A stretch of DNA of 63,970 bases, the filler included, from Klebsormidium nitens (taxonomy: Eukaryota; Plantae; Klebsormidiophyceae), in assembly GCA_000708835.1 (NCBI GenBank). It is 6 parts of 6 records of this genome, joined end to end, with 100 filler letters (N's around TTAATTAATTAA, not from the genome) between each part and the next. Parts side by side here need not be neighbours in the genome. Positions count along the whole stretch, not along the records: positions 37,216 to 62,094 come from DF237463.1; 5 more parts are not named here. One strand, 5' to 3'. A program made the position numbers and the translations under genes. The notes under the pieces are model-generated. The model was not told the DNA's origin, searched no databases, and worked only from the letters and a program-made list of their open reading frames with translations. Positions within the stretch are counted from its first letter, which is position 1, and each line of letters starts with the position of its first letter. This document shows, in pieces, positions 34,646 to 63,970 of the stretch.

Positions 34646-34744
34646 GACGTACAGGTGGTAGCAACGGTCGAGAAGTTTGGTGCAAATGACTACAAAACTC
34701 AGACATAACACAACTGTGCAGCCGCCTGACTAGAGGACGCCATG

Positions 34745-40180: not shown

Positions 40181-40304
40181 GCTTTTCCACAGACCGAAGG
40201 AGGTTCGGAGCCCCCTTATATTTTCAACCCCAGAAAATTTTGTTTGACATGGAACGCGGCACTCGACGGAGCCCACGCTTGCAGAGACGTGTTGGTTAGT
40301 ACGA

Positions 40305-40541: not shown

Positions 40542-40637
40542 AGTTGGAGTGCAATTGAAGCCTCCTAATAATTCTAATATAGAAAAAGTGCTTCTCAAAG
40601 AACGCACACAAAGTGCAGACAGAAGACAATTGTCCAC

Positions 40638-41681: not shown

Positions 41682-41743
41682 CGCCGTGAAACTGCCTCGT
41701 TGTTACTAATCTTCACAGATATTTTTTGTAAGATACGAACGTA

Positions 41744-42559
41744 TCAGAGTCGATCTGGATTGAAGCGCTTTCCATTGTACTGGATCTTGCTCAGGAACAT
41801 GGACCAGTTACTAGCAGACATAGCCGTCTGCGGCTGAGTGATCGAAGTCAAGAAGTGATCTCGAGGTATCAATCGCAGGGTCCGATGAAGATACTTGCTC
41901 AGCATCTTCGATAGAGGGATTCGATCCCCATCTTTGAAGACGAGTTTGTAATCTCCCTTGCGTCGTGAGGTCTGCAGCAAATAGCTCGCACCCTCGATCT
42001 GTTGGCCCTTCGGCATGATTGGAAGCTCGTGCACTTTTACCCGACGACGATGCTCCTTACTCAAGAGCATATGCCATTCGAGGACGAGATGCCACATACA
42101 GAGCTTCACCTCCTTAGGAGTGAGATCTCGATCCATGTCCTCGAGACTCAACTGTCTGACCTTGCGAGCGAGCTTCTTTCCGAATGTCTCGATCTCTTCA
42201 ACGGTCATCTCTGATCTGGCGTCCAAGGTCTTGGTCTCAATCTTTCGTTGAGCGGACTCCTTTAGGGCCTTGTTTTCCTTCCGAAACGGCTCATAATAAG
42301 TTTGATAAGCCTCCACATAACCGAGTTTGCGGCAAATAGCAAGAAAAGGGGCCAAACGAGTACGCCTGGATCCAGGGTTATCATAGCGCTCTAGAACAGC
42401 TGCGACGATCTTCTGAGCCTTGGTCTTTATCCACGAGGGGTCTTCGGGCATCTTATCCTGGAACATCATGTTCCATAGAAGCTGAATCCCCTTGAGATAC
42501 TGCTCAGTGGAACTTTCGGTTCTGATCCCATCAGCTAAGACCTTTCGTAGGGTATCCAT
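41744..42559 (-). CDS. Degenerate tyrosine recombinase paralog (~271 aa) ending before the catalytic C-terminus
   Basis: Collinear with the 40638 YR by eye: SSTEQYLKGIQLLW/TTVSVYIRQLKTVY, PSWIK/LDWIE, APFLAI/APFAIL, HLVLEWH/HLILALY, LRLIPRDHFL/FNLIPRKHLI. TGA falls at the LLRH-equivalent Arg position. Confidence 0.75.
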   Translation of the reverse strand: MDTLRKVLADGIRTESSTEQYLKGIQLLWNMMFQDKMPEDPSWIKTKAQKIVAAVLERYDNPGSRRTRLAPFLAICRKLGYVEAYQTYYEPFRKENKALKESAQRKIETKTLDARSEMTVEEIETFGKKLARKVRQLSLEDMDRDLTPKEVKLCMWHLVLEWHMLLSKEHRRRVKVHELPIMPKGQQIEGASYLLQTSRRKGDYKLVFKDGDRIPLSKMLSKYLHRTLRLIPRDHFLTSITQPQTAMSASNWSMFLSKIQYNGKRFNPDRL

Positions 42560-42670
42560 AGTTATGACCTGCCTACGATGATGTAAGAAAATAATTTTAT
42601 AACGTCTCCCATTTTGCAACAAGTTATTTAAAAAAGGTTCGTCACAATAAAATGACGTCGAAACCTCTCC

Positions 42671-42769
42671 TAAACGTTTATTTTCTTGAAACTGCGTGCG
42701 GGGGGCGGAAAATTGTTGAGAAATCTCGAGATTTTTCAAGAGAATAACTAGTTATTTCAATAGCACGTG
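42671..42769. promoter_or_regulatory. AT-rich palindrome cluster upstream of the YR pair (candidate promoter, att site or origin)
   Basis: TAAACGTTTA (42671-80), 24-bp TTGAGAAATCTCGAGATTTTTCAA with 1 mismatch (42716-39), AATAACTAGTTATT (42743-56) and CACGTG (42764-69). Confidence 0.5.
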
Positions 42770-42949: not shown

Positions 42950-45900
42950 AGTATATACCTAATGTAGATAGTAGATATTTCTCATCAGGTAGCTTTGGCG
43001 CGTGTGCTGCTTCCTCGAAGCTCTTTCCACACAGACACACGTTCTCCTCTGTCCGATGCTTCTGCTTTTCACAAGCTTCTTCAAAGGCGGCATAATCCAC
43101 AAGTCTTTATTCCGCTCAGAGGTGAGAAATTGGTGTTGCTGCTTTTTGACTGCTTGCAGATAAGGTTATTTTCATGAAAGCTACATTCTTCCTCCTTCTC
43201 CATTCTTTCTTGTTTTCGAATCTTGTCTTTCTGAGAATTTTTGAACAATCTGTTTCGATCCGCATTGTGTTGCTTTCCATAATGTCCGAGCTGCTATTGC
43301 AAGTTTGGACATCTGGTTCCGTTGATGGAAATAAGTTGTCACAAAAGCCAACACAATGCTGATGCTTAATATTGTTCAGCAGGCTCTTTTCAAAATGCTT
43401 ATTAAGCCTCAAGGTCAAACATGCCTATGTGCAGAAGGGGGTCCTGCAGCCTTAACTACCTGCAAGGCAGGCGGCTTAGAATGCATGTCAGCAAAAATTT
43501 TTACTACCATACTCTGAATGCTTGCTTTGCTTGACTGTTCTGCTTCCTCGCCGTAGAGCAGCTGGTGAAAATCGTAGATTGATACGGCCCCGACACGCTC
43601 CCTGTAAATTGCCGATCGGATGCCTTTCGTAGAAAGGCGTCAGAACCGTAGCATTGAGGCTCTCGCACCTCAAGCTCGAAGAGAAGAGCGTTGGCGGCCC
43701 TCTTGAGCGCAATTCCACGATGTTCCGCATAGACCATGCTAAGATCTCCTGAGTTGCCCAGAGACCGAAGCCTCTCACACTCCAAGGCCCACAGATGCTC
43801 CGTAGCATCAAGGAGCGTCGACAGAGGGGACCGACCGGAGGCGCTAGGGCAGTTGGCACTCGGTTCCAAGCAGAGGAGGTTGGTCGCGTAGATGTCCCGA
43901 AGGAGCGGACGCAGTGCTGCTGCAAAGGCGTACAGTCGAGGACCCGTTTGCACTTCACCAATTGCGTGCAGCCGGAGAATGGCTGCTAGAATCGGCCCAT
44001 TGTTGGCGAGGTAAGCAAGTCCTCGCTCGTCAACTGGCCCCTCGAGCAACAGGTGTCGAAGCAGCTTTAGCGTCAAGATGTTGCCAAACACCCACCTGTA
44101 GCGGGGTATCAGGAGGGCGTGCAGGAGGGCCGTGTATGGCTTGAAATGGGTCGGGCACCAACCCGTGGGCGCCACAGGGCCCCCCTTCAGCACCCCGTCC
44201 ATCCACGGTCGACGCGCGACCATCCAGACCGCACAAGTCTTAGGGTCGGCGCAAATCGCGGATTCCGTCGCAAGGTCGATCGGGGTCCCCACGTTTGCCG
44301 GCAACCTCTGACGCATGGCCACAAATACCTCCGCCAAGAGAGGCGTGTTTGACCCTTGAGCAGGCGCCTTGCGAAAAGTTGCACCCTCGGAGGCCGCAGC
44401 TCGTACGGCCGGCTTCAGCTCAGACAACCCGTTCCTGAACTTCCAAGGGCAGTCGATACCCTCAAGCGGGTCGTTTGAAGGCCGCACCCCACTGATGCTG
44501 AAAGGAGTGAAACCCCCTGCCACGTGAGGTGCCTCTGGGTCCGGCTCGCAGATGCTATGCAACGTGGCTTCCGTGCTGTCCCGCATAGCACTTGAGTTGG
44601 GAAAAACGTCCCGTCAAAGTGACAACTTTGTCGCGACTGAACATACAAATTGCCAGATTTGAGGTGGACCCCTCGGTTCGCTCCGGTTTGAGAGGGCAAC
44701 TAGCTCTCTCTGCCTCAGCCTCGGCAGCTTGCACCTCAGACGTGTACAGATGAGCACAATTGGGACGTCCGCAGACGTGCTGGATCCGAGACCGGGCTGC
44801 CAAGTCGTTGAAGGCTTGCATCGCTACGTCGAAGACGCAATCGTCTAGCATAAGAGCGTCCGGCCCTTCGAGACTCATGGTTGCCATGTTGTTGGCGTCA
44901 AAGTTGAGGCTGTATGATGCTCCAAGGGCCGCCGCAAAGTGATTGCGCAGCAAGAGGCCGTGCGAAATGAGCCGCCATGTCGGAGAAGTTGAATATGCCA
45001 TCTTCCTGTTCAAGAATGGAACATGGACATGATGCATTCGAATGGAACTCCTCAAAAATTTATAGAATATATGAGCAATTAAGATATGGAATCAAATGAG
45101 AGGTTTGCATCTGTTCTGAGCATCTGTGCAAGAATGGACAACTCGCCCTTGGTGGAATAGCAGCCTCCGCGTCAACCAGCAAAGAAACTCAAGCCGCTGA
45201 TGGAAGTTTGATGGATGAATTTCTGGTCCCGTCGAATGGTGCACCCGGCCCACGGACATTTCTCATGGTTCCTCCTCAGCCTTGCCGACTCTGCGGCCTT
45301 CAGTTCACCATCCTACAATGGCCGATGTCTCCCAATGTGGGCTCGTGGTTTGCAAGAAGTGCCTCCATGCACGGTAGGAATCACACCCTCAGCCTACCGA
45401 CTAGAAGAATGCTGTCATCCCATTGGTCCACCATATTCCCCTGGTAGGGTCTAGAAATTGTACGTAAAGAGAAGGGCTTTAATCACTTTAAGTAGTCCGG
45501 AACTGCCTCAAGACTCAAGGGTAAAGGACGTGACCCTAGCCTTTAAGTACCGGAGCCACTCCGTACGCCACGCGCGCTGCTCGCGCACATTCGCAAGGGC
45601 ATGTGCCAATCCTAGTATGCTACCATGGCTACGTTGAAATTAACCGTCGGGCGAATACGGCGGACTCTTCCCGTGACTCTAACTACGGTGTCTTCCCCCC
45701 GGGCTCTTTCAGCCCCGAAATGTTTAGAGCAAGTGCCCGGTAAAACCGATTGCCCTGTAGTAGCAGTTTTAGTTGCTTTCGATTGCACTAACTAATTTCA
45801 TGCCACAATGGTCGTCGCGGCGATGGCGATTTCCGTCCAAGTAGCGCACTCCTCGGATGATAGGGGTCTCGACTTGGTGCCGTAGCCATTGCTGTGCCCT

Positions 45901-46317
45901 GTGGCAGGTTCGGAGCTTTCCTACACGGCGATCTGGCCGCCGCCCCTTTGCTCCAAGTCTCTCGACTCTCGGAAACGACGCGAGCTGCGCGCGCACTCGC
46001 GCCACGATTTCAACAACAGCACCAACCGTGCACAGAACTTCACGTGCACCAAATTTCACGGCGGAACGACAAAGTGATGCAGTCCACATCTTATTATACT
46101 CGGAAGCGAAGTTTTCCCGTGTCATATGGAGGGTGCCTCGGATCCCGGAAGGTATGGGTGGGGAGAGAGGGCGCGACAACACTACGGTAGCCCGGTTCCA
46201 AAAAGCGCAGTTCATTTTGCCCGGGGCCGCAAAGTCCGGGGCCTGTGCATCGAGCGGTGCCACGTAAAATGTACGGACTCGCGCTGACCAATGGGAAGTA
46301 GGGACCCAATATACCAC
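42950..46317 (-). pseudogene. Fragmented Cys-rich gene, possibly KDZ/CxC (HMGXB3-like) transposase-related
   Basis: Co-oriented pieces at 45769-46317, ~45200-45300 (KCPWAGC), 44555-45055 (EQEDGIFNFSD/LISHGLLLRN..AMQAFNDL..HVCGRPNC), 43504-44586 and ~42950-43070 (VCLCG). The resemblance to CxC-type proteins is from memory only. Confidence 0.35.
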
Positions 46318-47119
46318 GTGGTATACAGTCTGACATAGCGGTACCCGGCATTGAGCCAGCGGTACTGCCTGGGTACTACCTGGTAGCTACTCAGTACCCA
46401 CCAGGCACGGGCAAATTTCAAGCAGGGAATTACTCACCTACGGTTCAACTTACCGGTACTGCCTAAGCTACCCTACCTTAGACCTACCTACCTACGGTCT
46501 GAATCAAGCTAGAGGCTAGGCTGGCCGGGGTTATTTTCCGCCGGTCACCTGCCAGGGGGACGCAAGGTTTAGGTAAGCTCCCGGGGCTGCGGTTTCCCGG
46601 TCTGGAGAGCCTAGCCTACCTAGGTTGCCTTGCTAGCCTAGCTACTGTCAGTGGTACCCGTAGCTACGGCTCGTTTGTGAGGTACGGCTCGACGGTTTAC
46701 TCGACTCGCAGTTTGAAATTTTCGTGACCGTTCCAGGCCTACCGGGCACACTGCCAGTCACGCGGGGGACTCCACTTGCAGCGCGGGACTGAACCGAATG
46801 TGTGCGGCATGAGACCATGAAAACTTAACACAGTAAGTGAATATTGGCAGGCGCTGCGGGCCTTGAGCCATACCTGCGTTAAAAGTAAAAAGTTGAAATG
46901 CCGACTGGCGGTACGTATGGTCTGATTTGCAGCTTCAGACTTGGAATACGGTGAATTGCCGTGAGTCGCGGTACCCTACTGATTTGAGCTAGCGGTACCC
47001 GCGGTACCCGACCCAGGTTCCCAACAGTCCGGGGCTGCGGGTGCACGTGGTCTGACAATTCTGCCCAGCGGAAGGTCCAAGCTGAGGGCCCGGGCTTTGC
47101 CGGGACCTTGAAAGGGCCG

Positions 47120-47161
47120 AGTTAAAGTGCGCTTTTTGACAACTTGATGGTCAATGTAGTG
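47120..47161. repeat. Shared 42-bp element end terminating in TGTAGTG (CACTA-like terminus); second copy at 63627-63668
   Basis: AGTTAAAGTGCGCTTTTTGACAAC(TT/GG)GATGGTCAATGTAGTG is 40/42 identical between the two sites. Homology stops right after TAGTG. Confidence 0.6.
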
Positions 47162-47650
47162 CAAAAGAAGTCACTAGCAGAATGAGCAGCAGGACGATCC
47201 CGGGGTGGTATGAAACCGGGGGAAAATACCGCACTCGCGAAATCACCAGCGGGAAAAAAACCCCTTCTCTGTAATATATGTAATTGAATATTTATGACGA
47301 AGATTTGAATATATACTAATTTATATCTATATTATTAACGCAAGGTTATAACATGCTAAGCAACCCTGCGGTTCTGGTTATGGCCGTGCTCCTTCAGAGT
47401 CCCATAACTTATAAGGGTGAAATTCACGTTAATGTGGTACGTACCGTATCAGACGTACCTGTTGAGACTAACGTGGCGGGCGGCGAGCAAGGCATTCCGT
47501 ACGCGGCGCCTAACTTCGAGTGCTGATGTCAACAAGAGGCTCAAGACTTCTGAGACGACTGCCCTGCAACAACAACAATCGGTATGAGGTTTTAAAAAGC
47601 TTCCTGCCTGTTTAGATCCAGCTGCTATTTCCTACACCAGCGACACAAAT

Positions 47651-49600
47651 ATGGCGCAGGTGCCATTGGTCCTGATGATCTTAGCCATCCTTCTGACCTG
47701 CATTGCCTTCGTCTTGCTTGTAGGTGCAGTGATTAGAGGCTTCATATACAGGAACAGAATCCTGATTGATGTAAGAGCTCTAATTCACACTTTGGAGTTT
47801 GAGGCGGAGTCAAAGAGGAATTTGGAAACAGGACTAATCGGCGCAGACTTGCGGCTCAGATCGCGAGGTTTTGCATTAGTGAAGGATCTGTCGGATCCAG
47901 TAAGTGATGCGGCCAGTGAGGGTCCTAATCTGCATGAAGCAGACACTGGGGACAAGAAGGGCAAGAGAAAGGTCGAGGAAATTTGTGGGTGTCCATCAGG
48001 AGGGCGGGCAAGCAGCTCGAGCAGTGAAGCTGTGGGGCTGGCAAGCCAGCAGGAGGAGCAGCCTGCCAGCATGGATGAGGAGTGCGCAGAAGATGCAAAG
48101 GAAAGGGGCTTCCAGTCCAGGTTGATTTTTGACGACAAGGAGGTTGAAGAGGTCAAGGAGCCGGCCTTTATAAGTGCTCGCGGCGCCGTAGTAAGCACTA
48201 GCTGCGACTATTACCTCGGAACTCGCCACAAAGAGCCAGCTTTCGGGTGCAAAGTTGTAAAGATGCATCCAATCTCTCCACACTTGAGGGCCAAAGTGTC
48301 TACAGCTGAAGCAGCTCAGAGTCAACCGGAATCCGGTGTCTCTCAAACAGTTGAAATGACTGAGATACCTGATCAAGTAGCGTTCTCAGTCGAAAGCTGG
48401 GAAGGTGACAAGACACCCAAAGGCAGTTCCCTTGAACCAATTGGATTCTTTAGATCGGACTCCACAGCTCCCAGTGCTGAGAGTACTGTTGGCAGCACAT
48501 CAGCAGCCAGTCATGTGGAAAGCACGGTGGACCTGGAGACGGCATTCATTGGAGGGGTTAAAACCAAAACTCATGAGGAGCCCGACTCGATTTTGGATTT
48601 GAGTGAGGGTACCCGGTACCTCAGTATCCAAGCTTCAAAGCTGAACATTGAGTCATACAACTACAGGATTCTGCACCACTTGGCAGACGTATTGAGTCTT
48701 TTGTTGACGGTGATGTTATTAGATGTGCGAAGGACGCACGCGCACCACGGGGTGGTGACTTTCGCCGTGTCCTTGCACTTTGCCATGTGGTTCGCGGGGC
48801 GGCTGCTGTTCATGCTTCTGTTCCCTTGGCTAGAGTTATATGGGGCTGTAGATGCTTTGAATGCAGTGTGCCAGCGCAATGGCATAGTGTACAAACGGGA
48901 GAGGAGGAGAGCACGTTATAACAAGCATAACGCCACTGGACAGAGCGTTGAAAGTTTGGGTGTGGTAGATAGGGGGGCAACATGGCATACTTTGTTGTGG
49001 TTAGCTCCTCCAGGTGATAAGCTGAGGCACTCTACTTGGAGCAAGCATACAGGACTGGGATTGCAATATAGTGAAGCTGCTGCAACCCATGCAGAGTCTT
49101 TGGAACACCTCGCCAAAGCAACGGGATCAATGTACACCATCTGTGGGACTTATGCACTGGGGATCATTGCTGGGGCCATGACGCTCGCAGTGGTCAAAGA
49201 TTCTGCTGTAGCTATACCAGCCACGGTCCTGGCATTCATCATTGCGTTGCTCGGAACGGAGGTCACTCTGACTGCGGCTCGCGCGGTTGAGTTCGCAAGC
49301 TCGGTAATCAAAGCAAAGAGGGCGGTAGACATTCTGGCTGACATCAACAACAACGCGTGCATAATTGAAAGAGCAAGCCTTAAGAGGTATGTGGCCAGAA
49401 TAGGCAAGTATGGCGGGATAAGGTTAATTTATGGAATGCTCAGAAGGGAGGTGATGCCTCTCATACGGGCTTGTGGCTATAAGCCCAACACGGTTGTTCT
49501 GATTTTCTTGAAAAGGAATGCCGAGCTGTTTGTCCCGATGAAGGTGACTCCTACCCACAGGAAGCCAGCTAGGCGTTGGCCCGTAGCTGCATCCCCCTGA
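47651..49600 (+). CDS. Intronless orphan multi-pass membrane protein (649 aa)
   Basis: Intact long ORF with an N-terminal hydrophobic helix, a Ser/Glu-rich disordered middle and two later hydrophobic clusters. An AT-rich TATA-like tract lies at 47270-47350. Confidence 0.7.
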   Translation: MAQVPLVLMILAILLTCIAFVLLVGAVIRGFIYRNRILIDVRALIHTLEFEAESKRNLETGLIGADLRLRSRGFALVKDLSDPVSDAASEGPNLHEADTGDKKGKRKVEEICGCPSGGRASSSSSEAVGLASQQEEQPASMDEECAEDAKERGFQSRLIFDDKEVEEVKEPAFISARGAVVSTSCDYYLGTRHKEPAFGCKVVKMHPISPHLRAKVSTAEAAQSQPESGVSQTVEMTEIPDQVAFSVESWEGDKTPKGSSLEPIGFFRSDSTAPSAESTVGSTSAASHVESTVDLETAFIGGVKTKTHEEPDSILDLSEGTRYLSIQASKLNIESYNYRILHHLADVLSLLLTVMLLDVRRTHAHHGVVTFAVSLHFAMWFAGRLLFMLLFPWLELYGAVDALNAVCQRNGIVYKRERRRARYNKHNATGQSVESLGVVDRGATWHTLLWLAPPGDKLRHSTWSKHTGLGLQYSEAAATHAESLEHLAKATGSMYTICGTYALGIIAGAMTLAVVKDSAVAIPATVLAFIIALLGTEVTLTAARAVEFASSVIKAKRAVDILADINNNACIIERASLKRYVARIGKYGGIRLIYGMLRREVMPLIRACGYKPNTVVLIFLKRNAELFVPMKVTPTHRKPARRWPVAASP

Positions 49601-50209: not shown

Positions 50210-50971
50210 TTAGATATGACCAGCTTGCACCACTATCAATGTCTCGGACGATACGAGAGATACGCCAAACCGTTCAGCCCTCTGGTTACGTGTCTCGTGA
50301 CCTGCTGTCGTGGTGCTTGACTTTGAGGCTTTGATCTTTCGGGCTAGCTCCTCTGTAATCAAAGACTTATGGTGTTCCGCACCCCTGCGTATCGTTCCAT
50401 TGGCAATCTTGTCTTCGTAATAATCCTCTGATTGGGTCCCATACACCAAGTGACTCGGCTCGAAACAGAGGGGCTGAAAACAAAGGTGTCTGATGACCAT
50501 CCTGACACCATCTTTGTCGCAATAAGGAGGAGGATAAATCAAGTCGTTACGTAGCATGTACGCGGCCCTGTGCCTCTGTAGTCTGTGACCGCCAAGCGTC
50601 ACTGTGTTTGCTGTTTTAGCCACCAAACAACCATTTGGTAGACGGACTCCATGTCCCTTCAATCGAGTCCAGGCAGCTTCGCGGTTAAACCTGCCCTTTT
50701 TAGGCACCCTCTGTAGGTGCTCAATGTTGACACAAGAATTGTTCCCACAAGACCTCTGACAGGCATGGAACTCGTCGATGAGTTCGTCAGGGTGATGGAG
50801 GTCCCAAAGGAAACGGTGTACACTGACAACCCGAGTGTCCTTCTGGGGCGTTACACCAACACGGCACGATGCACCAGTTGTGTTCCCATTCCAAGGGAAA
50901 CAACCATTTTCATCAGTTGGACCTGTTCTGGCTTTCAATGCCGTGAAGAAAGTTGAGTTCCAGTCCGCCAT
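50210..50971 (-). CDS. Tandem HNH/His-Cys-box homing-endonuclease-like protein with a C-terminal HTH
   Basis: VSVHRFLW..CQRSCGNNSCVNIEHL and HRAAY..VIRHLCFQPLCFEPSHLVYGTQSED, then NGTIRRGAEHHKSLITEE..RAERFGVS as in phage or giant-virus HNH endonucleases. Intronless. Confidence 0.8.
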   Translation of the reverse strand: MADWNSTFFTALKARTGPTDENGCFPWNGNTTGASCRVGVTPQKDTRVVSVHRFLWDLHHPDELIDEFHACQRSCGNNSCVNIEHLQRVPKKGRFNREAAWTRLKGHGVRLPNGCLVAKTANTVTLGGHRLQRHRAAYMLRNDLIYPPPYCDKDGVRMVIRHLCFQPLCFEPSHLVYGTQSEDYYEDKIANGTIRRGAEHHKSLITEELARKIKASKSSTTTAGHETRNQRAERFGVSLVSSETLIVVQAGHI

Positions 50972-51075
50972 GCTCTGGCTCCTGCTTCTCAGGTAGAAAC
51001 TAAACAACAATGGGTAAACGCAGACCATATGAAAGGATCCTAGCCAAATGCACTTGAATTGCTGAGTCGTTTAAA

Positions 51076-51573
51076 TCATGCGAGGCTGAGGATGGTGGAC
51101 AACATGGTCTGTTTATCTATTGGCTTCCGACAGTAACAGTTCATCTCCACCTCGCGACACTTGATCGCATCGTTCTCCATGGCGTGTGCGTTTAACGCAA
51201 CTATAGGAATGCGGCCCGGCAATGCTCCTTCCGCTTCCAGCTGACGGATCTGCCTCGTAGCCTCATAACCGTCCAAGCGGGGTATCTGCAAGTTCATGAG
51301 TATTATATCGTAATCGAAAGGCCGTTCGCAGTAGATATCCAAAGCCACCTTTCCGTCTTCCGACATCGTGGCTCTGGCTCCCTCCTTGAGCAGGAATCGC
51401 TCCAGGATCTTGCTGATGCGTCGCGTATCCTCGGCCACCAACACGTGGATGCCTTGCAACGGAATCTCGTCGTTCTTCATGGTCTCGCTCACGACCTCCG
51501 ACCTCCTGATGGACGCGGATGGCACATCTAATTCTAACCAGAACCTCAGTCTTGAAGACCCATATGAACCCAC
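51076..51573 (-). pseudogene. Receiver domain of a hybrid histidine kinase with the phospho-acceptor Asp replaced by Asn
   Basis: HVLVAED, DIILMNLQIPRLDGYEATRQIR, IPIVALNAHA and YCRKPI. D>N, M>I and T>N changes at conserved sites; preceded by HATPase-end-like RFWLEL. Confidence 0.75.
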
Positions 51574-52491
51574 GGCACGCCGGGCTCATATTGGGCTACT
51601 GCTCTACCTCTATCCCTTGCACGATCCTGTCCGCATCTCTTGTCTTCTGCAAAGACAAGATGCAAAGACCTCGGATGGTCGAATGCTACATCTATCCTGT
51701 CGGATTCCAGGTACTTTGGGACACTCTGTATCCGGGTTATTATTATTGAAAAACAAAAGATCTCTATCCATCCCGGAAGTAGTACGGATTTTTAAACAAA
51801 AGCGCCTCTGATAGCAGAGATCATATTGCTTCAACAACGCCCGGGCGAGATCGAGGATTCGTTTCCATTGCTGCGGGTTCCTGAAGATTTTATGGACAAT
51901 AGAACAATCGACTACATCATCAACCAGAAGCCTCTTCTGCTCGACGACATACGTGTGATGCTCCGTGGAGGTCCACTCTGCCGCATCTCAAACAATTCGA
52001 GGCCTCGTAACAGCGTACCATAGCGAGGAGCTGGTGTTACTTATATTGATGATGAGAAAGACTTTGAGAGGGTCCAAAGGAACTACTAGAAGAGTTAAGT
52101 TGGAAAATCGGTCACATTTGGCGGGCAACACCAGTGGTTCCAAGGACATCCATGATCTAACGCTCAATACAGAAGTTCGAGATCGTTGCACCTAATTGCT
52201 TCTATTATAATTGATTATAATAGATAATATGCATATATATAATTTGCATATGCCCCCCATATGCAAATTGAGCAAAGAGGCATCCTAAATCGATCAGTTG
52301 CTGATCCATTTTCTCAATCAAGTAGAGGCCAGTGTATCCACCGACATGCTAGGAGCGTTTCCTGAGAGAAGAAGACAGACAAACAAATATTGTCTACTAG
52401 AGCAGGATGGAAACAGAAGAGCAGAAGTCTGAAGTAGCTTGACGGGGGCTCAGCTAAACTCCGTTTGCTCCTCTCTTGGATTTTAACTAGC

Positions 52492-52788: not shown

Positions 52789-53103
52789 TTGTTGGACGAA
52801 GTTGATTGTTATGACATGGATTTAGAACGTCCTAATGTTCTGATCGACCGAGGACTGCACATTCAATCAATTGGCAATGCGGATCTAAGAAGGGGGATAT
52901 TGCTATTCCTAGCACGTGCAATGGATCCGGTGTCAAAGACAACCACTTTGAGATCTCTGTCGAACTTTCTAGACAATGAGATGTGTTCTCCATATAAAGA
53001 AGCCGGATATTCTGCGCGAAACGTCAATCTGATTCTATATGAAGCGGAGCAAGTGCTTGGTAACGGCGTTGAACGAGGTTATACGGAAGTTATTCAAACG
53101 TAA
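52780..53103 (+). CDS. Small hypothetical ORF (~107 aa) converging on the primase gene
   Basis: MRHLLDEVDCYDMDLERP...EVIQT*; intronless, no family recognised. Confidence 0.35.
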   Translation: MRHLLDEVDCYDMDLERPNVLIDRGLHIQSIGNADLRRGILLFLARAMDPVSKTTTLRSLSNFLDNEMCSPYKEAGYSARNVNLILYEAEQVLGNGVERGYTEVIQT

Positions 53104-53177
53104 CAAAGCTCTGAAAGACTTCGTTCTCCAATGAGATGCTGTACATATCAGGGACTTGACTTATCTCAAGAACCTTG

Positions 53178-56100
53178 CTATCTTTTTACTATACTGTCTT
53201 TTGTTGGCGTGTTGAGCTGGAATCCTCGATAACCCCGGACTGAGTCTCCCGGGTTTGCAAATCTTAGCTTGGATGGCTTGTCTGGGCCCTCCAATCCCTT
53301 TTTCTTGCAAGCATCCGCGAACTTCCGATCATTGTGGATCGGTGGCACGTCGCTGTCGCCAAATCTCAAGCCGTCGACCAACCGATCCGGGTTGTTATAC
53401 GCGTCCATGAGAGTGCGCGTGGATTCGAAAGCCTTGATGTTCATCCTGCCTTCCTCCTGAAGGAAGGCCGCGAACGGATCATTTTCCTGCTCCCATGAGT
53501 GCATGTACGCCTTGCTGCTTTCGAGCATGTCAAGAAGCCTCTTCCCACTTGCGTACCAGTCCATGGCGCCTTGCACCAGAAATACCAATAGCTTTTCGGG
53601 CTCGGCCTTCAAGACGTCTTCCAATGCAAGGTCCCGGATGCCATGAAGTGGGTTGTCCGGATTGTAGCCCGCTTCATCCGGATAGAAAAAGCGCATTGGA
53701 AATACAAGCGTCAAGAGGCGTTGCTTGAGCGCTATCGTCCAGGTCTTCACCCGGGGAGGGTAGTTGGAGCAGAGAATGTGCTGCAGAGGGAATGAATCGT
53801 GCATAAGCATCCGCGTGCTTGACACTCATGAATACGGCAATTTTGTAAGGTGGTGAGTCGATGTCAACGTCCATTCTGTCTATTCATGGACGGCACAGAC
53901 GGCTAGGACCCCAGAAATGGAAAGCCCTGAAAAATAAGTCTCGGCTCCAAAGACCTACAATCAAGGCTCCAGGGCAGCTGTGCTGTCGTCCAAGATGAAT
54001 CTCATCTACCAAATGCTCTTCATGGACGGCACAGACGGCTAGGACAGCATAGCTGGAAAAAACCTTGGAATCTAATCTCGGCTTCAAGAACCTCGAATAT
54101 CGAGGCTCCTGGACGGCTGTGCTGTCCGTCAAGACGACTCTCCATCTTCAAAACGCTCTTCATGGACGGCAAAGACGGCTAGGACAGCATAACTGGAAAA
54201 ACCTTGGAATCTAATCTCGGCTTCAATAGAGACCTCAATTATCGAGATCCTTGGACAGCTGTGCTGTCCATCAAGTCGGATCTCCATCTACAAAAGGCTC
54301 TCTTCATGGACGGCACAAACGGCTAGGACAGCATAATTCGAAAAGCCCTTGGAATCTAATCTCGGCTTCGAAGACCTCAGGTATCGAGGCCCCTGGACGG
54401 CTGTGCTGTCCATCAAGACGAGTCTCCATCTACAAACACGCTCTTCATGGACGGCAAAGACGGCTACGACATCATAATCCGATAAGCCCTTGGAACCTAA
54501 TCTCGACTTTCAAAGCCTCGGGTATCGAAGCCCCTGGACAGCTGTGCTGTTCATAAAGACGAAGAGTCTCCATCTACAACACTCTTCATGGACGGCAAAG
54601 ACGGCCAGGACACTATGGTCGGACCTCTCTTAACATCTACAATTATTTGTGAGAAACCTTGCCGAAAATGCAACGACTTTTTAACGCTGGTGTTGTTCTT
54701 TGAAAAGGCTCCTTATTGAAAAAAGCTCTTGGCACAGAGAACCACAGCTTTTTAAGCACGGTTACGTTAGCTTTTTGCAGAAAAAAGGTACGGCTTTGCC
54801 AGCAGCAGACGTCGGTGACTTACCAGCTGAGTAGTGGCAAACGTGACGTAATCCGAGTAGAGCGCTCTACTCGTGATAGTTGCCTCTCCGGTCAGCCGCT
54901 TCACGTTGGCCTCTGAAAACTCATCCGTATCTTCCGTCTCCGCGCATTCAGCGAATCGTATGTTTCGTAAACCTGGAAAAAAAAATGCGTTTCAAACTTT
55001 CTGAATGTTGCACACATAATGGAAGTCATTCTCCAGGCACGACTTGTTGATAATCCTTCGAACATTCATCTTGCGATGAGCTTTGTACAAGAACTAGCTC
55101 CATCACTGCCAAGCGCTTGAAACAGTGGGCACGACTTGATATACATTTGTGCATAATATTTTTCAAGCGCAACACGAGATTTCGTCATCAAAGCCTCGCA
55201 TCCTGGCACACAGGTTTGTGAACGTACGTTCCTCACCTGCTTCCGCCGGATTTGCAGCACCTTTTCCAAGCCGGCCGTTGCTCCTTGGACGTTACAAGCA
55301 TGTCCTTCGAGACGTCCTTGTAGAACGGGCCAATCACTCGCTTCAGCATAGTCAATAAAAGGCTCTTTCCCGCTCCGCCCTCGCCGATCATCGTCAAAAT
55401 GACCTGGTTTGACGTGTGCCCCGTGATGCCGTACCCAAGAATGCGCTGGAGATAAGCAAGTGCCTCCGGAGTGTGCGTGATCTGACGAAGAAACTCTCCT
55501 GTTCTGCCCAACGGCGTAGCAAGCCCGGTCGACGGCCACCAGACGGGGAGCTTGAAAGACCATAGATACTGCAAGACAACACATAAAAACAAAAGAATCG
55601 ATACCAAATGCAATACAAGACTATAACTCTCAAGCATTTGCATCAACCAAGCAATCCAGATGCTTCGGGCCGTTGGTAAACGTTATTATGGTCAATAATA
55701 CAAAGAAAGGCCACATGCTATTCGAACCTGTGGCAGGAACATAAAAAGAAGCACACTTGAGAACGATGGCAGTGTGCATGATTGCTGAAATTAAGACCAA
55801 TGAAATGCTTTACTCAAGAAGAAGCGGCCCTGACAGGTCATTACAAGTCAGGCCAATTCGAATGGAGTTTCAAACAAAGTAAACCGCAGCCTTAAATACC
55901 CACCTTCGGATGGTGTGGCACCAGAATACCGCTCTTTAGCAGTACGACGCCGTTTTGAAGAGGAAGCGCATCCCTGTTGGTATTCAACGCTTCTTCACAT
56001 GCCGGCTCCAAGCAATAACCTTTTAGTGTTGTCATAATCTGGCTCATCTTGGCGTTGAAGTTCAAGTTTGCAAGCTTCTCCTTTGTAGATTTCTTCTCCT

Positions 56101-58212
56101 CCTCCGCTTGCGAACTCTTGCCATCGGCATCCGACGCAATCTTCTTCTTCTCCTGCTTTTTTGTTTCCATCTCCATCTTATACGCCTTACTGATCTTATT
56201 GAGCTCTCCGCGGCAGATCTGGCTCGCAAGCCGTCCGTTTACGTCCACCGCCCAAACCGATCCGTCATAACAAAACCACTTTTCGTTGCAGAAAACGAGC
56301 TTGAACCCCGTGTACGTTTGCAAGCGGTCGATGATCAATGCCCCTCCTTCATCACCTGAAAAAACGTCTTCGACCTGTCATCGGCAACATTTGATTGGCG
56401 AGTGGCACCCTGACGTCTGTATTCACACGCGGCAAGACACTTTTCCTGGGAAGGGATTCGAGCAAGACTACTTGCAAGTCATGCATTTTGAGATCTTCGT
56501 TTCACAAACAGGCGCCGATCTCGATTTCCTTCAATTTCTTCTTCAAGAGTAACACAAGAGACGCATATTGGCTCAGGTCTGCATGATCGCAAAATTTCTG
56601 CTTTCAAGTTGTTGATGATGAAGCAGACCTCGTGCATCGGTGACTAGGCGCGCAGGCTTTGGCCATCAAATTTGAAACTCGCCTTCGAGATAGGCGTGTT
56701 CAACCTCTGGATTTTGCATTTGATGTTTGCCCAACTTGGACAAACTTCTAAATCTTTGACTTGATAGCAATTAGTGATGATGTTGGTCGAAGCGCAGCTA
56801 CTTTGTCGAAACCGTTAGTTTTCGCCACAAAAATCGCAAAAGCAGAACTTGCAAGAGGTTGGTGATAGTCACCAGACCTCGGGCATCAGTGACAGGCGTA
56901 GCGTGCTGGCTTGGCCACCAAATTGGAAGTCGTCCACCAGTTGGACAACCTCTGGATTTTGCGATTTGATGTTCATTTCAGAAGCTGTACACTGGGAATA
57001 CAGCTTCTGGGGCTTGTCACATTTGATAGCAACTAGTCGTGATGGTCTTTGAAGCGCGCCTCACCTGCCGAAACCGAAAGGTTCCGACGCAAAAACCAGA
57101 GGGGGAGCAGTTCTCGATTTTCGTATAATCGATCGCGGTCGCTGTTCAACGGAGAAGCGTCGGAAAAGGCTGCGGCCACCGGGAAGCGGAGACCCCCGAG
57201 TTTTTTGTTTCTCTTGCCGTCGCCAGTCTTGCACCGTTGGCTGTGGCATACGTAGGTGATTTCTGTTCCTCTTCTGAGCAGACCAAAGTTGTTGCTTTCT
57301 GTGCGGCTGCGCCCCCGCTTCTGCATACGGACACACCCGCCCTCCCACATCATTTCGCCAGTGGTACATCACGGCCCCTAAAACGGGAACCGTGCTCGGC
57401 TCCGCCTTGGAGAAGATAGAGGAATTGTCGCCAAAACTGCTGAGCATGCCTCGCATTGCCTTGACCACGTCTTGCTGCAGCTCAAGATCCAGTACATCCG
57501 GCGCCTCAAATTCCGCATTAGCTCTCGCGCTAGGCATGGGCGCAATGGAAAGCTCGGGTGGCCCTTTCGAGCGTTGCCTCGAACGCCTCGACACTCGCTC
57601 GTTGAGAATCTCGATCAACCAATTCGGGAGAGGGGGCAAATCTTTTGCTGGGGGGAGCTCGCCTCCGCCGACAACTGAATATCGTGCCGTCTCACCGAGT
57701 CGCTCATATCACGACCGGGGGCATGCGATCATGCCGTTTGAGCTAACACCCCTCATGTCGACTCCCACCTTCTTCAAAACCGCCTTTCCAGAGTCCGGGT
57801 CTCGGACTCTTAGCTCTAGCTTTGCAAAGTGGGTCGGTGTCTCTGCGCCCAGCCCCGACTCAAGGCTTCTCTGATGAGAGAAGTAGATGTGCACCCCCCC
57901 GCTGCCCGTACGCACTCGAGGAGCATCAAACGCGCCGTGCTCTATCTCCCAAATTGCTAGCTGCTCCATGCCCCCGTCACCGAGGTCAAAGTCCAGCACG
58001 AGGATACCAGACGCCGCCGTGTTGATCAGCAGCGTATTGTGATGGGGCTGGAAGAAGTGGTTGGTCAGGCAGTTGGCTAAGGTGGACGCCTGCCATTTTG
58101 TTGGGGGCTTCATTTCTTTCCGTCCCTTCCCTCCCTTTGCCTTGGAATCCCACTCGGTGTCTGCCGGGAACACGACATAGCCTTTTGCGACCAAGTCGCG
58201 AGCCGCAGCTCC
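53178..58212 (-). pseudogene. Intron-containing Prim-Pol/D5 primase-helicase gene with 3 apparent lesions
   Basis: Exons 58212-57065, 56355-55904, 55568-55237, 54972-54824 and 53780-53178 join by GT-AG introns into ~895 codons: ILVLDFD, RTGSGGVHIYF, PLQNGVV..PHHPK|YLWS, GEGGAGKS, GAANPAEAG|LRNIRFAECAET, FATTQL|HILCSNYPP..KQRL. Lesions: TGA at 57709-57711 and +1 indels near 57297 and 55284. Confidence 0.85.
53885..54612. repeat. Tandem array of ~140-bp units (5 full plus 1 partial) inside the last intron of the primase gene
   Basis: CATGGACGGC anchors at 53885, 54021, 54161, 54305, 54446 and 54587 (spacings 136, 140, 144, 141, 141). Confidence 0.9.
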
Positions 58213-58309
58213 CTGCACCAATTGCACACATCGTCAGTATCAAAAAGACACATAAGTCTGCAACCTAGTTGTGAGCCCACAACATAGGGTCGAGTTTAGC
58301 CCTACCAAG

Positions 58310-61300
58310 GCCAATGACGGACGCGAAGCCAAATCGAATATCATGAGCTACTTCCAAGGTGCTGTCCGAGCCGTCCAAGCTGTCCATGAAGACAGATTCG
58401 TAGTTGAGAGTTCCTCTAGATGGACAGCAGTCCCGTCCGCGGCCGGAATCAAGGCCGGAATCGGATTCGTGAGCTCCTGTCAAAGTGCTGTCTTTGCCGT
58501 CCAAACTGTCTATGAAGACGAATTCGTAGATGCAACTTTCGCTAGATGGACAGTATTGCCGTCCATGGCTGGGTTTAGGGTGTGAGAAATTTTGAAGAGT
58601 TGTCCAAGCTCTCCTTGCCATCCATGAGACATTCAAAAAATCGATATTCCTCTCTGTCTCACTGCTGTATGGATGCAATTAGCCTGAGGTAAGAGTCTGG
58701 ATGAACAATAAACTACAACACCCGAAAGGTTCGTCCCAGCGAATGGTCTAGAAGGGACTTGGGGATTCCCAGGCTATGAGCCAAAAGTACCAGGCAGAGA
58801 TAGCATACCTCATCATGAATTGCGTCTGAACTCCGAAAGGTCGGAACCTTGTAGGTTGCAAGCCAGATCGAGTACGACGTCAACCTCCCCATGGTTGTGA
58901 AGCTGAGACGAAGAATGAATAAGCTACATTCCAGAGAGCTGTCTAACCCGTCCAAGCAATTTATGGAGAAGAACCCATGATTGACAGCTTCTCTAGACGT
59001 ACAGCAGTCTCGCTTGCAACCAACTTCGAGACTGTCCGAGCCGTCTATGCGGTTCATGAAGGAGAGTTTCACAAACAAATACCCTCTTGATGAATCCGTC
59101 CGTGGGTGGCCTCATCGAAATTGTGAGCTACATTTTGAAGTGCTGTCCCAGCCGTCCAAGCTGTCCAAGAAGACAGCTTTGTAACTGCGACTCCCTGTAG
59201 ATGGACACGGCCTAGTCAATATCGTCAGCTATTCCGAAGTGCTGTCCATGAAGGGGAATCGAGTGAAGAGGGACGCTCCTTCAGTTGCACTCGAGTAAGC
59301 TCCAACACACCATTGCACTTGCTCCCCACTCTCTTTCTTGGTCCGCGAGACGGTGGTCCTGAGCAGAATCAACCGGCAGTGGACAGTCGTCTAGCATCTC
59401 CTTGTCCGATGCAGTCTCCTCGTTGTCCCTTTCAGAAATTAGGCGTCCGCACCTTCGCAATTGTCACTGCACTCTGATGAAGCCGAGTCGGAACTGCCCA
59501 GCCCCTGCATCCCAATGGTAATATTGCTGAGGCAGCCTGTCACGAAAGGCACGTGCTTTCCGAAGCCGAACAGGTAAATTGCAACGGGTTTTGTTTCTAA
59601 GGCATGCCATTACAGCAAGGTGGGTGTCGCATGGAATTTTCGCCACGGCTGACGGATTTTCTTCCTTAGGTGGGTTTAACGAGGCCCCTGGGAGCAACTT
59701 GACTGGAGATGGGCAGATTGTGTTTGTTTACGACAGGCCTACCCAATAAGTGGAGGTTATCGAATTGGAAGGTCCAGACCAGCGTACCTGGGCCAAGGAT
59801 GAAGAAGGCTTCCAAGATTCTAAAGGCTTGTCGCGCGCAGAACACAGCTACTCCTGAAGTCGCTCATTAGAAGATATCTTACACATCCTCCTCAGCTCCA
59901 GAATTGTCTGAGACGGCGACGAATAGACACACGCAACGATGCCTCCTTACACAAGCATCCTCTGCCCCATCACTTTGATGTTGGCAGTCGAGTGTGCTCC
60001 TTCAACCCGACTTGCCGTCTGCTCGCTCATCGCCCCTCCTTCATTCTTTGATTCGCCACTATGCTTGCGTTTTCGGCCCCGGTCTGGCCCGCAACTTCCT
60101 GCATCAATCGCACACATTGTCACAGATCAGATCACACCGGATGATTGCCTTTTTCAAGGCCAACGACGGTGGCAAAGCCGAATCGAAATTGTGAGCTATT
60201 TCCGAAGTGCTGTCCGAGCCGTCCAAGCTGTCCACGAAGACAAATTCGTAGTTGAGAGTTCCCTTAGATGGACAGCAGTCCCGTCCGCGGCCGGCGAGGC
60301 CGGAATCGAAATTGTGAGCTCCTTTTAAAGTGCTGTCCAAGCCGTCCATGGAGACGAAACTGTAGTAGATGGCGTCTCTCCATGGACAGCACTGCTGTCA
60401 GCGCTTGGCAACATGGATGCATTCATTTCAAACCAATCTGACCTGAGGCGCTTCACTCCAATGGAAAAAGTAAAGCTCATCTCGAAGAACACCAAGCAAA
60501 TGTTAAGAAAGATTACCCACCATCTGATCTGCTCGAAGCTCTCTTCTCTGGTCCGCACGACGATGAGCATGGGCAGTTTCAACTGATGGGAGGCGGTTGT
60601 CACTGTCTCCAGCAGAAGACGCTGCTCGTTGCGACGAGGCTTTGGAGTCCTGCATGAAGAATGTGCATGAAAGGTTGCCGCTTTTTGATTCCCAAAAGCT
60701 GGCACCAAAACGTTGCAGGAAGTGCCGGCCTGGATTACACAGCAGACCGCAAGAGCACGCTGAACCTGCTCGAACCTTCAAGCTATTCACCGTGACGCGG
60801 GTATAGCTTCAAAATTCTGAACGTTGTGGCCAGTGTCATGTTGAAAGCGACTTTTTGCAGTGAACCCCCACAAGGCTCACAAGGCAGACAAAACCATCGT
60901 CCATTAAGACGGCCATTCTATTCTGAGAAACAGCCTCCGTGGACTGCACGGACAGCCAAGACAACACTCTCGAAATCTCAAAGAATTTCAAACACTATCA
61001 ACGATCATAGATTCTTAAGTCAGGACCATGGAGCCGGACAGCACTGCCGTCCAAGGAGACAAAAGTTATTTTAGAAAAGTGTCTCCATGGACAGCGTGGA
61101 CAGCGTGGACAAGACTTTGCAAACTTCACAGAAAGCCACAATCCACTAAGTGAAACGAGATTCAAGTAAAAGTAGCTCGCTGGAACTTGAATCACCCAGA
61201 AGTAGGGATGCTTGAGGCGCCCGGCCTTCAAACAATTTGTAGCCAGTATTCGAGGCAGGAAAAACCTTAAAGCAGTGCAATCACCTACAAAGAAGGGACC

Positions 61301-62035
61301 CGGCTGGGTGGCAATGGGAGCAGTATTCTGCTTCACTGGGCCCCACATCGTGGACCAAGAAGCAAGCAGCACTTGGGGGACTGACCTTATCTACTGAACT
61401 CAAGACCCCATGACTGGCAGCGGTCTTCTCTAAAGTAGGCCCCCAGAAGATGAGTGTAGCAAAACACGTACCTACGCAATGGTTGCATGAGAAGAATGCA
61501 CCATAGCCTGCCCAGGGTCTTTTTCACCACCTGTTCCCTGAAACTTCTCCTTCGACACGACACAATCTGGGAGCGCCGCAGCCTCTGATGCAGGGTGGTC
61601 GCCATTTACTAAGGCTCCATCTCCTCCATTCATGATTCCACTCAAATTGTTTGTCTAGTTTGCACAGGGTTCTTCTCAATGCTTTATCCGTTCCTCTGAC
61701 AATGTTAAAAATCTGACCCTTAAGGAATATCGCTCACGGCGGAACTCTTCAATGCCTTCTCGCTTCTCATGCGGATGCAGACTGAAGATTGAAAACTTTG
61801 CCGCCCTAGACAGCTGGAAGACAAGGTCACAAAATTATCACTAGAGCGACTAGGCCCTTGGTGGCTAGCCCAACTAAAGTAGGATATTCAACCACTTTTT
61901 TGGAGAGTTGCGGGAAGTGCTGTCCGAGCCGTCCAAGCCGTCTACCTAGCGGAACTTGTAGATGGACTCGACACTCGATGGACACAGTGCTGTCTATGAA
62001 GACCTTGATCTGCGGGCTTGATATTCAGAATATTG
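58310..62035. repeat. Dispersed diverged members of the same repeat family (clusters ~58330-58570, 58935-59260, 60190-60390, 60935-61110, 61915-62035), mostly inverted relative to the array
   Basis: Recurrent GTGCTGTCCGAGCCGTCCAAGCTGTCCATGAAGA...AGATGGACAGCA matches the reverse complement of the array core TCTTCATGGACGGCAAAGACGGCTAGGACAGCA. Confidence 0.75.
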
Positions 62036-62995
62036 AAGTTTTCAAGAACTCTGGGACTGCTGTCCAGGCCCTCCTGTGGTTTTTGGATCTTAAANNNNNN
62101 NNNNNNNNNNNNNNNNNNNNNNNNNNNNNNNNNNNNNNTTAATTAATTAANNNNNNNNNNNNNNNNNNNNNNNNNNNNNNNNNNNNNNNNNNNNACGTGA
62201 GGTCGGCATACGGACCGCCGCGCTGTTGCATATGTACATGCCGACCGGCGGTACCGACGGCCGCACGGCATGCATTGATGCCGGGCATCTGTGCGGCACC
62301 ATAACCGGCAGCCATCCGGCACATGATGGGTAAGCGTTATTAAGAGCGGCACCCTATCCTAAATAGGAGCGGCGAGACCCGCTTTTTCCGATGTTGAGGG
62401 AACACTCATCATGGCCGATCTCGAAGGTGTGAGTGAAGCGTTAGTCGCGACTGAATTTGGGGCGGCTTTGAAGGGAGCCATGCGCGAGCCCCTAGTTGCA
62501 TCGAGGAGCGACTTCGAAATTGCGGGCTCTTTAGCGTGGGCGCCCTGGGATCCTGGCGGGACTTGGATGGAGGAGCTGGCCGACTTGGATTTCAGCTGTA
62601 CATCATCCTTGCTGATCCGGGACGATCAGTTTTGTAAGGGGGTAGCTTGTACAGCTGTGCGAGCTGAACCCCACCCCCCGCGCGACGCCCCCACCTGGCA
62701 AGGTCCGCGGCGAGCTCGCGAGACGGTGGGGCGTTCGCGAGGCCCAGGCCCAGCTCGCGACACCCCCACCGAGCGAAGTAAAGGGCAAGTTCGCGAGGTG
62801 GGGCCTTCGCGAAATCCAGGGCGAGCTCGCGAGACCCCCACCCTGCGAATTCCAGGGCGAACTCGCGAAGTTGTGCGATGGACTTGGAAACCTGGATTGG
62901 GCAGCGAATCCTGGTTGGTCCATCTGGCGAGGCGAACCTAGACGGCTCTGTCGCGAGCTGACCTCATGCTGGCCGCTCAGGGCGAGCTCAACTTA

Positions 62996-63970
62996 GGCGT
63001 GCAGAGCGAAGTGCCACCTCAGATTTGACGACTTGTGGCGAGGCAGACCTGCGCGAACTGAACAGTGGCGCCGCGCGGGGCGAGCCTCAGGGGCGGGCAA
63101 ACTTTGGCGCCCCGCCGGGCACATTACTCGCGGGCCCGGCACAGATAGGTTGGGCCCATCGTTCTCAGGGGCGAGGCGAGTTCGCTTTGGTGCATCTTTA
63201 AGGCTGATCGCGAATCCAAGGCTGAGTTGGAGTCATGGGCAAGTTCGCAGCTGGCGACCGGAGGGATTTCGCAGCTGGCGACTAAAGGGATTTCGCAGNN
63301 NNNNNNNNNNNNNNNNNNNNNNNNNNNNNNNNNNNNNNNNNNNNNNNNNNNNNNNNNNNNNNNNNNNNNNNNNNNNNNNNNNNNNNNNNNNNNNNNNNNN
63401 NNNNNNNNNNNNNNGCGGTAGCCTTCGGCTAGTACCGCCAGCTAGGATAAACCTGCCGACGGTGAATTCTTGTAACCTTGAATTTTCCGAGTACACTCGA
63501 CGGAGAAAGTACTGCCGCAGTGTACAAGTGCAATTCTGACAGACTTGGACTCGGTCCCTATACGTGGCACTCATCGGACGGTGCCAGCCCCAGCCAGCGG
63601 AAAGTTCGGGACCCCGAAATGTACCTAGTTAAAGTGCGCTTTTTGACAACGGGATGGTCAATGTAGTGGCGTGCAGAGAGAAGTGCCACCTCAGATTTGA
63701 CGACTTGTGGCGAGGCAGACCTGCGCGAACTGAACAGTGGCGCCGCGCGGGGCGAGCCTCAGGGGCGGGCAAACTTTGGCGCCCCGCCGGGCACACTACT
63801 TGCGGGCCCGGCACAGATCAGATGGGCCCATCGTTCTCAGGGGCGAGGCGAGTTCGCTTTGGTGCATCTTTAAGGCTGATCGCGAATCCAAGGCTGAGTT
63901 GGAGTCATGGGCAAGTTCGCAGCTGGCGACCGGAGGGATTTCGCAGCTGGCGACTAAAGGGATTTCGCGG
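62996..63970 (+). repeat. ~300-bp direct repeat pair (62996-63298 and 63668-63970) spanning an N gap
   Basis: Near-identical copies with a few substitutions (GCGAAG/GAGAAG, ATTACTC/ACTACTT, TAGGT/TCAGA). The second copy starts exactly at the TAGTG terminus. Confidence 0.85.

Follow-up and report, generated by a model that had tools for sequence, protein, structure and literature searches.

How does a virus-type replication gene come to be cut by spliceosomal introns in the nuclear genome of an alga? The question is raised by a locus at 53178-58212 of a 63,970-nucleotide stretch of Klebsormidium nitens DNA (assembly GCA_000708835.1), six parts joined by filler letters and here called the window. 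The locus lies on the piece at 37216-62094 (DF237463.1), its gene runs on the minus strand, and all coordinates are those of the whole window. A reading made from the sequence alone (the sequence-only reading) had described a primase-helicase gene rejoined across four GT-AG introns and had offered two origins, an intronised, domesticated viral gene or a nuclear mobile-element lineage. Our results support this pair and, without settling the choice, lean to a multi-copy mobile lineage. The locus is best read as a broken copy of a spliced family that joins primase-polymerase (Prim-Pol), D5 and superfamily 3 (SF3) helicase domains, and we incline to the view that the family is a selfish, capsid-less nuclear DNA element that copies itself with its own replicase.

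Architecture of the gene

All features of the gene are on the minus strand. An upstream coding exon at 59311-59504 adds an acidic N-terminal extension; one base is missing near 59437 here, and the donor GT of the family lies at 59310. Over 59436-59311 this exon shares 81% identity with residues 49-90 of the paralog P0021, whose residues 25-45 match in a different frame. An extension of this exon (58809-59310, nearest in-frame ATG at 58893) leads to an alternative donor at 58808 that is used only by this copy, followed by a 596-nt GT-AG intron at 58213-58808 with a CTGAC branch-like site. The next exon (57065-58212) encodes a Prim-Pol domain of the archaeo-eukaryotic primase (AEP) type (57712-58212; PF09250, E 2.9e-08), a linker and a Cys/His domain, and carries a TGA at 57711-57709 and an extra base at 57297.

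Further downstream, a 709-nt phase 1 intron (57064-56356) with an internal duplication of ~130 nt (72%) precedes the D5_N exon at 55904-56355 (domain at 55904-56353; PF08706, E 1.3e-07). A 335-nt phase 0 intron (55903-55569), also found in the unspliced contig of a paralog and in relatives at 45% identity, is followed by the SF3 helicase exon with Walker A (55237-55568; extra base at 55271). A 264-nt phase 1 intron (55236-54973) leads to the exon of the Walker B region, diverged here (54824-54972), and a 1043-nt phase 0 intron (54823-53781), which contains a 141-bp tandem array of 5.2 copies (53883-54612), to the last exon (53178-53780) with motif C, the arginine-finger region (KQR here, KRR in paralogs), a C-terminal domain and the stop. 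The motif names (AEP I-III, Walker A/B, motif C, arginine finger) are those that we take to apply. The Prim-Pol, D5_N and SF3 domains thus follow one another over ~890 codons, an order and length similar, as had been proposed, to those of an intronless 946-aa gene at 37340, to which the exons are 28% identical.

The four downstream introns stand exactly where the sequence-only reading had placed them, and the junction peptides PHHPK/YLWS, AEAG/LRNIRFAE and FATTQL/HILCSNY are as it gave them. All five introns have GT-AG ends. The polypyrimidine acceptors that it described are also present: of the 20 nt that precede AG, 11-14 are pyrimidines in the four introns and 9-14 across all five; a CTRAY branch-like site lies within the last 80 nt in 1/5. 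The longest open frame inside any of the four introns is 87 codons, and a Pfam scan of the intronic open reading frames (ORFs) gave no match. The removed segments are therefore non-coding with canonical ends, and not the coding sequence or transposable-element insertions that would have spoken against the earlier proposal.

The public model KFL_005140020 (Klebsormidium nitens) is this locus, with a 100% match in three stretches. It omits conserved parts and fuses the gene with a response regulator at 51531-51079. We reject this fusion: the conserved parts are dropped and 1.8 kb is read across, so that the public gene model of the locus is wrong.

Splicing in transcript-like contigs

Splicing was examined in contigs from 8 runs of 6 studies, in two sets of four runs that we took to be RNA. 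Statements about contigs hold for the pieces listed, and contigs drop rare variants. Joints were seen at all five intron sites, those of the 709-, 264- and 1043-nt introns with CT..AC ends on the plus strand. The 709-nt intron is joined in 4/4 runs of one set and 1/4 of the other, the 335-nt intron in 3/4 and 4/4 runs (with six replaced letters and a short side of 22 nt), the 264-nt intron in 2/4 runs and the 1043-nt intron in 3/4. Transcript-like sequence thus bears out the predicted junctions, those of the four downstream introns in a paralog. The occurrence of joints at exact coordinates led us to reject chance GT-AG edges, and the position of the 141-bp array within a spliced intron to reject transposon insertions posing as introns.

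The acceptor with CTGAC predicted at 58213 is present and used. The joint 58211-58808 was found in 4/4 runs, in a 1089-nt contig with zero differences from the window, which demonstrates that this copy is transcribed and spliced at 58808-58213. The four downstream joints sit in contigs that show 167 differences from the window across 2311 nt (93% identity) and belong to a paralog; its transcript has neither the extra base at 57297 nor the one at 55271. A second 5' form was observed in a paralog contig, spliced from 59310 to 58207 and one base longer at 59437. A further paralog contig at 55541-55933 (49 differences, 13 gaps) retains the 335-nt intron, which therefore exists in another copy. Among the pieces listed, the four downstream introns are not joined in any contig of this copy, which is no evidence of absence; own-copy pieces at 56555-57248 continue through intron sequence. 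Weaker joints point toward further 5' introns (59950 or 59787 to 59505; 60520 to 60099). As a separate observation, the acceptor and ~200 nt before it are duplicated (86%) at 60099 and 58213, and both acceptors are apparently used.

A transcribed pseudogene

After splicing, the reading frame here is interrupted by the TGA at 57711-57709, the extra bases at 57297 and 55271 and the missing base near 59437. This copy is a transcribed pseudogene. The sequence-only reading had listed one TGA and two +1 indels: the TGA and the base at 57297 were confirmed, the second indel lies at 55271 and not at ~55284, and the lesion in the upstream coding exon had been overlooked. With a stop that precedes four introns, the message would be expected to be a target of nonsense-mediated decay.

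Decay of the gene or assembly error had both been left as explanations. The lesion near 59437 is real, since own-copy contigs reproduce the window there and the paralog has one more base. Own-copy contigs with zero differences span 3635 bases; 57710, 57297 and 55271 lie outside that cover. Catalytic motifs are complete in P0021 and P0022; in this copy Walker B has diverged and one conserved arginine is replaced by Q. Decay is the more likely explanation, given the four lesions, both motif changes and the 3635 zero-difference bases elsewhere, although the three downstream lesions fall outside the contig cover.

A multi-copy family under coding constraint

A search with the last exon returned five K. 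nitens proteins among 527 candidates, and further searches gave 13 annotated K. nitens models of this type, 7/13 of them on scaffolds < 35 kb. A helicase tree was built from 204 proteins, of which 150 qualified and 94 were used, 56 weaker matches being left out. The ten K. nitens models with enough helicase for placement form one clade in it (SH-aLRT, a likelihood-ratio branch test, 99-100); three more partial models are at 43-51% identity. KFL_002790160 and KFL_002790170 are adjacent genes. When the breaks are written as X, the exons here share 83-86% identity with four paralogs; the at least 10 copies range from 34% to 91% identity, several of them broken or partial. A subfamily at 45% identity occupies at least 4 other contigs, one of its members being fragmented. 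Paralog contigs align across the whole of 53050-60400 (7.3 kb), which makes flanking sequence part of the duplicated unit; no ends of this unit were located. Among matches that carry names, there was no homolog from land plants or another named host.

When 78 of the 167 differences between this copy and the paralog were listed and placed, 51/78 fell at third codon positions (p 7e-9), indicating coding constraint since the split of this copy and the paralog.

Intron sites in relatives were read from ORF ends of fetched proteins at least 40% identical to P0021. The sequence-only reading had proposed a search for paralogs with common intron positions, and sites are indeed shared: unannotated, unspliced ORFs of relatives 42-92% identical end at the same positions, six at the 709-nt site (P0006, 45, 46, 62, 70, 143), six at the 335-nt site (P0007, 24, 26, 27, 47, 52), four at the 264-nt site (P0071, 74, 139, 147) and none at the 1043-nt site. 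At the phase 0 335-nt site, 6/6 ORFs run on with Val, where the spliced protein has Tyr or Phe, because a GT donor requires Val. P0007, P0024 and P0027 (45%) read through the 709-nt site and stop at the 335-nt site, and so have the 335-nt intron and lack the 709-nt one. Three more ORFs (P0023, 64, 76) read through the 709-nt site. Since the outgroups are intronless, the introns were probably gained rather than lost. With an intronless ancestor, successive intron gains could be dated within this family: the 335-nt site is shared at 45% identity, and the 709-nt intron is absent there.

Relatives elsewhere and predicted fold

Trees came from quick searches with SH-aLRT support only; the full-length trees used LG+C20. 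In them the intron clade (100) and the clade of the 37340 gene (100) are separate branches of one group (95-98), which includes intronless environmental ORFs that share the Cys/His middle domain; possession of that domain was one basis for choosing the rows of one such tree. With a profile of the Cys/His domain, 54/204 proteins and 0/5544 ORFs from 85 loci were matched, and the domain therefore does not link the sister clade to this group.

The sister group (100) consists of metagenomic loci, two of which (L014, L016) hold three copies in 12 kb. Seven sister-group loci (L017, 025, 028, 032, 080, 082, 084) are split by GT-AG segments at two non-Klebsormidium sites, read by eye from DNA alone, and two of the seven were placed in the tree. 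These segments suggest an independent gain of introns in the sister clade. Scans for loci of the intron clade gave 127 metagenome and 31 IMG/VR pattern matches, none confirmed. IMG/VR scans with the intronless clade, P0044, P0053 and the recombinase described below found no relative; one scan gave five phage-like loci.

The predicted structure of P0022 (pLDDT 90.5, pTM 0.73) has as its best viral fold match the D5-family protein A0A2H4UVF4 of Bodo saltans virus (E 1.8e-40, full length, 14% identity), and its fold matches mix giant viruses, phages and one virophage. A single-sequence search of solved structures gave no match. The best solved relative is the PrimPol C962R of African swine fever virus (ASFV; profile E 5e-35, fold E 1.4e-24, ~15% identity). 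P0021 passes the curated cut-off of TIGR01613 (114.6 vs 108.7). Intact paralogs are predicted to have replicase activity (primase, polymerase, helicase).

Some metagenomic loci drew attention for other reasons. L007 and L012-L016 carry intronless multi-copy primase-helicases, up to three per 12 kb, on gene-poor contigs of 40-42% GC, beside RING, MYND and F-box ORFs. In L007, an ORF at 6623-7147 resembles a Tse2-like ADP-ribosyltransferase.

Surroundings of the locus

The intronless Prim-Pol/D5/SF3 gene (37340-40180, minus strand) belongs to its separate clade, which is multi-copy elsewhere (a 16-member cluster). The tie that the sequence-only reading implied between it and the spliced gene is weak: it is a distant relative, and we reject a derivation of the spliced gene from it. 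Upstream of it lies a tyrosine-recombinase-like gene (40638-41702, minus strand), whose nearest clusters are assigned with very high confidence to Preplasmiviricota. The order recombinase then primase recurs in KFL_011090010. A second, possibly related ORF lies beside the recombinase-like gene at 41744-42751. The recombinase-like gene is 11.5 kb from the spliced gene and goes with the intronless primase; the stretch 37340-42751 (minus strand) is likely a separate mobile cassette derived from a polinton-like virus (PLV).

No Pfam match to a capsid, packaging ATPase, polB, A32 or VLTF3 was found on the 25-kb piece in long ORFs and 82 short ORFs; the short-ORF scan covered 82 of 94 listed and gave one marginal unrelated match, and Pfam is weak for PLV capsids.

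Palindromic GGAC(A/G)GC repeat units are dispersed over 53883-62059 (no strand), in introns and upstream, and are absent from coding exons. In 53781-62094 (8.3 kb) the motif was counted 31 times, vs 5 times in the other 55.7 kb of the window, and the units form the 141-bp array and ~126-bp upstream units. Transcript contigs join the repeat to other sequence, so it is also present at other loci. It is tempting to speculate that these repeats are cis-acting sites.

The stretch 50210-51585 (minus strand) holds a response-regulator ORF that stands alone and, 2.1 kb downstream of the spliced gene, a gene for an HNH / His-Me endonuclease. The observed/expected CpG ratio drops to 0.71 in the HNH gene and to 0.59 in an ORF at 47588-49600, vs ~1.0 elsewhere. 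The stretch 45500-47100 is rich in short palindromes and is possibly the end of another element, and a 45-bp repeat occurs at 47117-47161 and 63624-63668, on two different pieces. Elsewhere in the window, a retroelement at 29746-36678, which we take to be DIRS-like, has a reverse transcriptase with a weak Dam match (32123-34645), a tyrosine recombinase (35054-36199) and 294-bp identical direct repeats. Other pieces carry host genes for a major facilitator superfamily transporter (8029-8664), a family 61 glycosyltransferase (18002-19174) and a 2Fe-2S ferredoxin (26313-26867).

A proposed self-copying element and its alternatives

We then propose a model for the origin of the locus. A replicase of PLV or giant-virus type would have entered the nucleus and come under host transcription. 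Introns would have been gained stepwise, followed by amplification of the gene as a DNA unit, its introns and flanking sequence included. The protein encoded by intact copies would be a ring helicase that carries a primase-polymerase head, and it would unwind the unit and copy it into new or tandem sites. Copies would die one by one, and the locus here would be one dead copy. The sister clade supports this model: in other genomes it is likewise multi-copy (L014, L016) and has independent introns.

Several points weigh against a self-copying element. Tandem or segmental duplication of a gene that serves the host gives the same birth-and-death pattern, and the paralogs may sit in a larger viral element with genes that Pfam missed. 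No terminal repeats were found around the gene, on a piece that ends at 62094, and no transposase was matched, so that mobility is something we infer. The four downstream joints are the paralog's and not this copy's, of these introns only the 335-nt one was seen in the paralog's own unspliced contig, and the RNA label of the runs is a guess. The stop at 57709 is absent from the listed differences, so the expressed paralog may carry it too. The helicase-only tree neither recovered the group of the intron and 37340 clades nor resolved deeper placement, and the trees contain no named PLV, giant-virus or nucleocytoplasmic large DNA virus (NCLDV) D5 sequence.

A bolder version of the self-copying element, which we put forward tentatively as something less than probable, is a new class of DNA transposon, capsid-less and transposase-less, with the spliced Prim-Pol/SF3 replicase as its sole enzyme and the palindromic arrays as origin or ends. 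If so, such a class would have arisen from PLV-type replicases at least 2 times, because intron gain in the sister clade took place at other sites, and it would escape virus surveys that are blind to introns.

Alternatively, the replicase could have been captured early, gained introns and now serve the alga as a domesticated host family, this copy being a decayed spare. We regard this as unlikely, and we would give no better chance to the roles that may be proposed for such a family (repair, restart, telomere or antiviral), with extra copies from ordinary duplication. The spliced transcripts appear constitutive, in 6 studies of runs guessed to be RNA, which contrasts with the methylation enrichment of K. 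nitens genes of viral origin described in the available part of PMC12344493. Purifying selection, the adjacent pair KFL_002790160 / KFL_002790170, the added acidic N-terminal exon and the lack of a mobility signature such as terminal repeats or a transposase fit domestication too. However, the number of copies, their wide divergence, the broken or partial state of several of them, the lack of a land-plant or other named host homolog among named matches, and the equally multi-copy state of the intronless and sister clades argue against it.

A further reading, similarly doubtful, makes the gene the replicase of an intron-bearing temperate virus, PLV-like or giant, with repeated integration; the gene would then be one component of larger proviruses, and the contig a worn remnant without structural genes. 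K. nitens holds several giant-virus inserts (PMC5294986), latency genes of a punuivirus have spliceosomal introns (bioRxiv 10.64898/2026.10.09.758095), and AEP-SF3 replicases pair with tyrosine recombinases in PLVs (bioRxiv 10.64898/2026.10.13.758929), each according to the portion of the source available; a PLV-type recombinase, a second primase-helicase and the HNH gene share the contig. Yet no structural gene was matched in the 25-kb contig, no relative of either clade was found in IMG/VR apart from the phage-like loci of one scan, and the recombinase stands beside the intronless gene, away from the spliced one. Passive decay of an inert viral insert that took up intron-like insertions and was duplicated neutrally is very improbable and largely refuted: the four lesions and altered helicase motifs of this copy, the repeats in two introns and the introns known in decaying endogenous viral elements (available part of PMC12768974) agree with it, but the introns are in register, spliced and common to relatives, and the third-position bias reflects coding constraint.

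Giant-virus inserts in Klebsormidium nitens have been described (PMC5294986), and the accessible part of that paper does not describe this primase-helicase family. Our literature search, whose coverage left most subscription journals outside, found no report of an intron-bearing primase-helicase family in Klebsormidium. Spliceosomal introns are known in viral and endogenous viral genes (PMC12768974; bioRxiv 10.64898/2026.10.09.758095), and autonomous mobility of AEP-SF3 replicase genes has been proposed (bioRxiv 10.64898/2026.10.13.758929), as far as the available portions of these sources go. A spliced, selected and amplified replicase without a capsid is new, as far as our searches reach; introns in viral genes are not.

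Comparison with known systems

Here a viral replication enzyme has come to depend on the host spliceosome and is still selected and multiplying, which makes it a living halfway form among endogenous viruses, transposons and host genes. Like NCLDV D5 proteins (ASFV C962R, poxvirus D5), it has D5_N and an SF3 helicase; unlike them, it is only ~15% identical and its N-terminus is a PF09250 Prim-Pol followed by a Cys/His domain. NCLDV D5 is encoded by a core gene in single copy, whereas the family here is spliced and multi-copy. The likeness to P4-family primases (TIGR01613) lies in the score of P0021 above the curated cut-off, whereas the identity of phage proteins, among the matches listed, does not exceed ~27% over half the length, and in the tree they fall outside the clade.

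The AEP/Prim-Pol-SF3 replicases of PLVs and virophages (Polisuviricotina / Preplasmiviricota) share the fusion of primase-polymerase to SF3 helicase and nuclear integration, and the pairing with a tyrosine recombinase applies here only to the intronless neighbour. In contrast to them, the gene here has five spliced introns, and no capsid, packaging gene or terminal repeat was found with it. A PLV survey assumed, in its accessible part, that such elements are without introns (PMC10120064); surveys of endogenous viruses that are blind to introns cannot see such genes. In Bodo saltans virus, 11 related AEP-SF3 copies are proposed to be mobile and are multi-copy without flanking repeats (bioRxiv 10.64898/2026.10.13.758929, in the part available). 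Those copies lie within a giant-virus genome, and A0A2H4UVF4 may be the core D5 or one of the 11. The family offers a testable case for the proposal that AEP-SF3 replicases move on their own.

Giant endogenous viral elements, the punuivirus and mirusviruses likewise have genes with GT-AG introns that use the host spliceosome, and intron-rich mirusviruses are mostly without replication genes, both according to the available parts of the sources (PMC12768974 for the latter). There, the introns belong to whole viral genomes; here, the replicase itself bears the introns and has been amplified.

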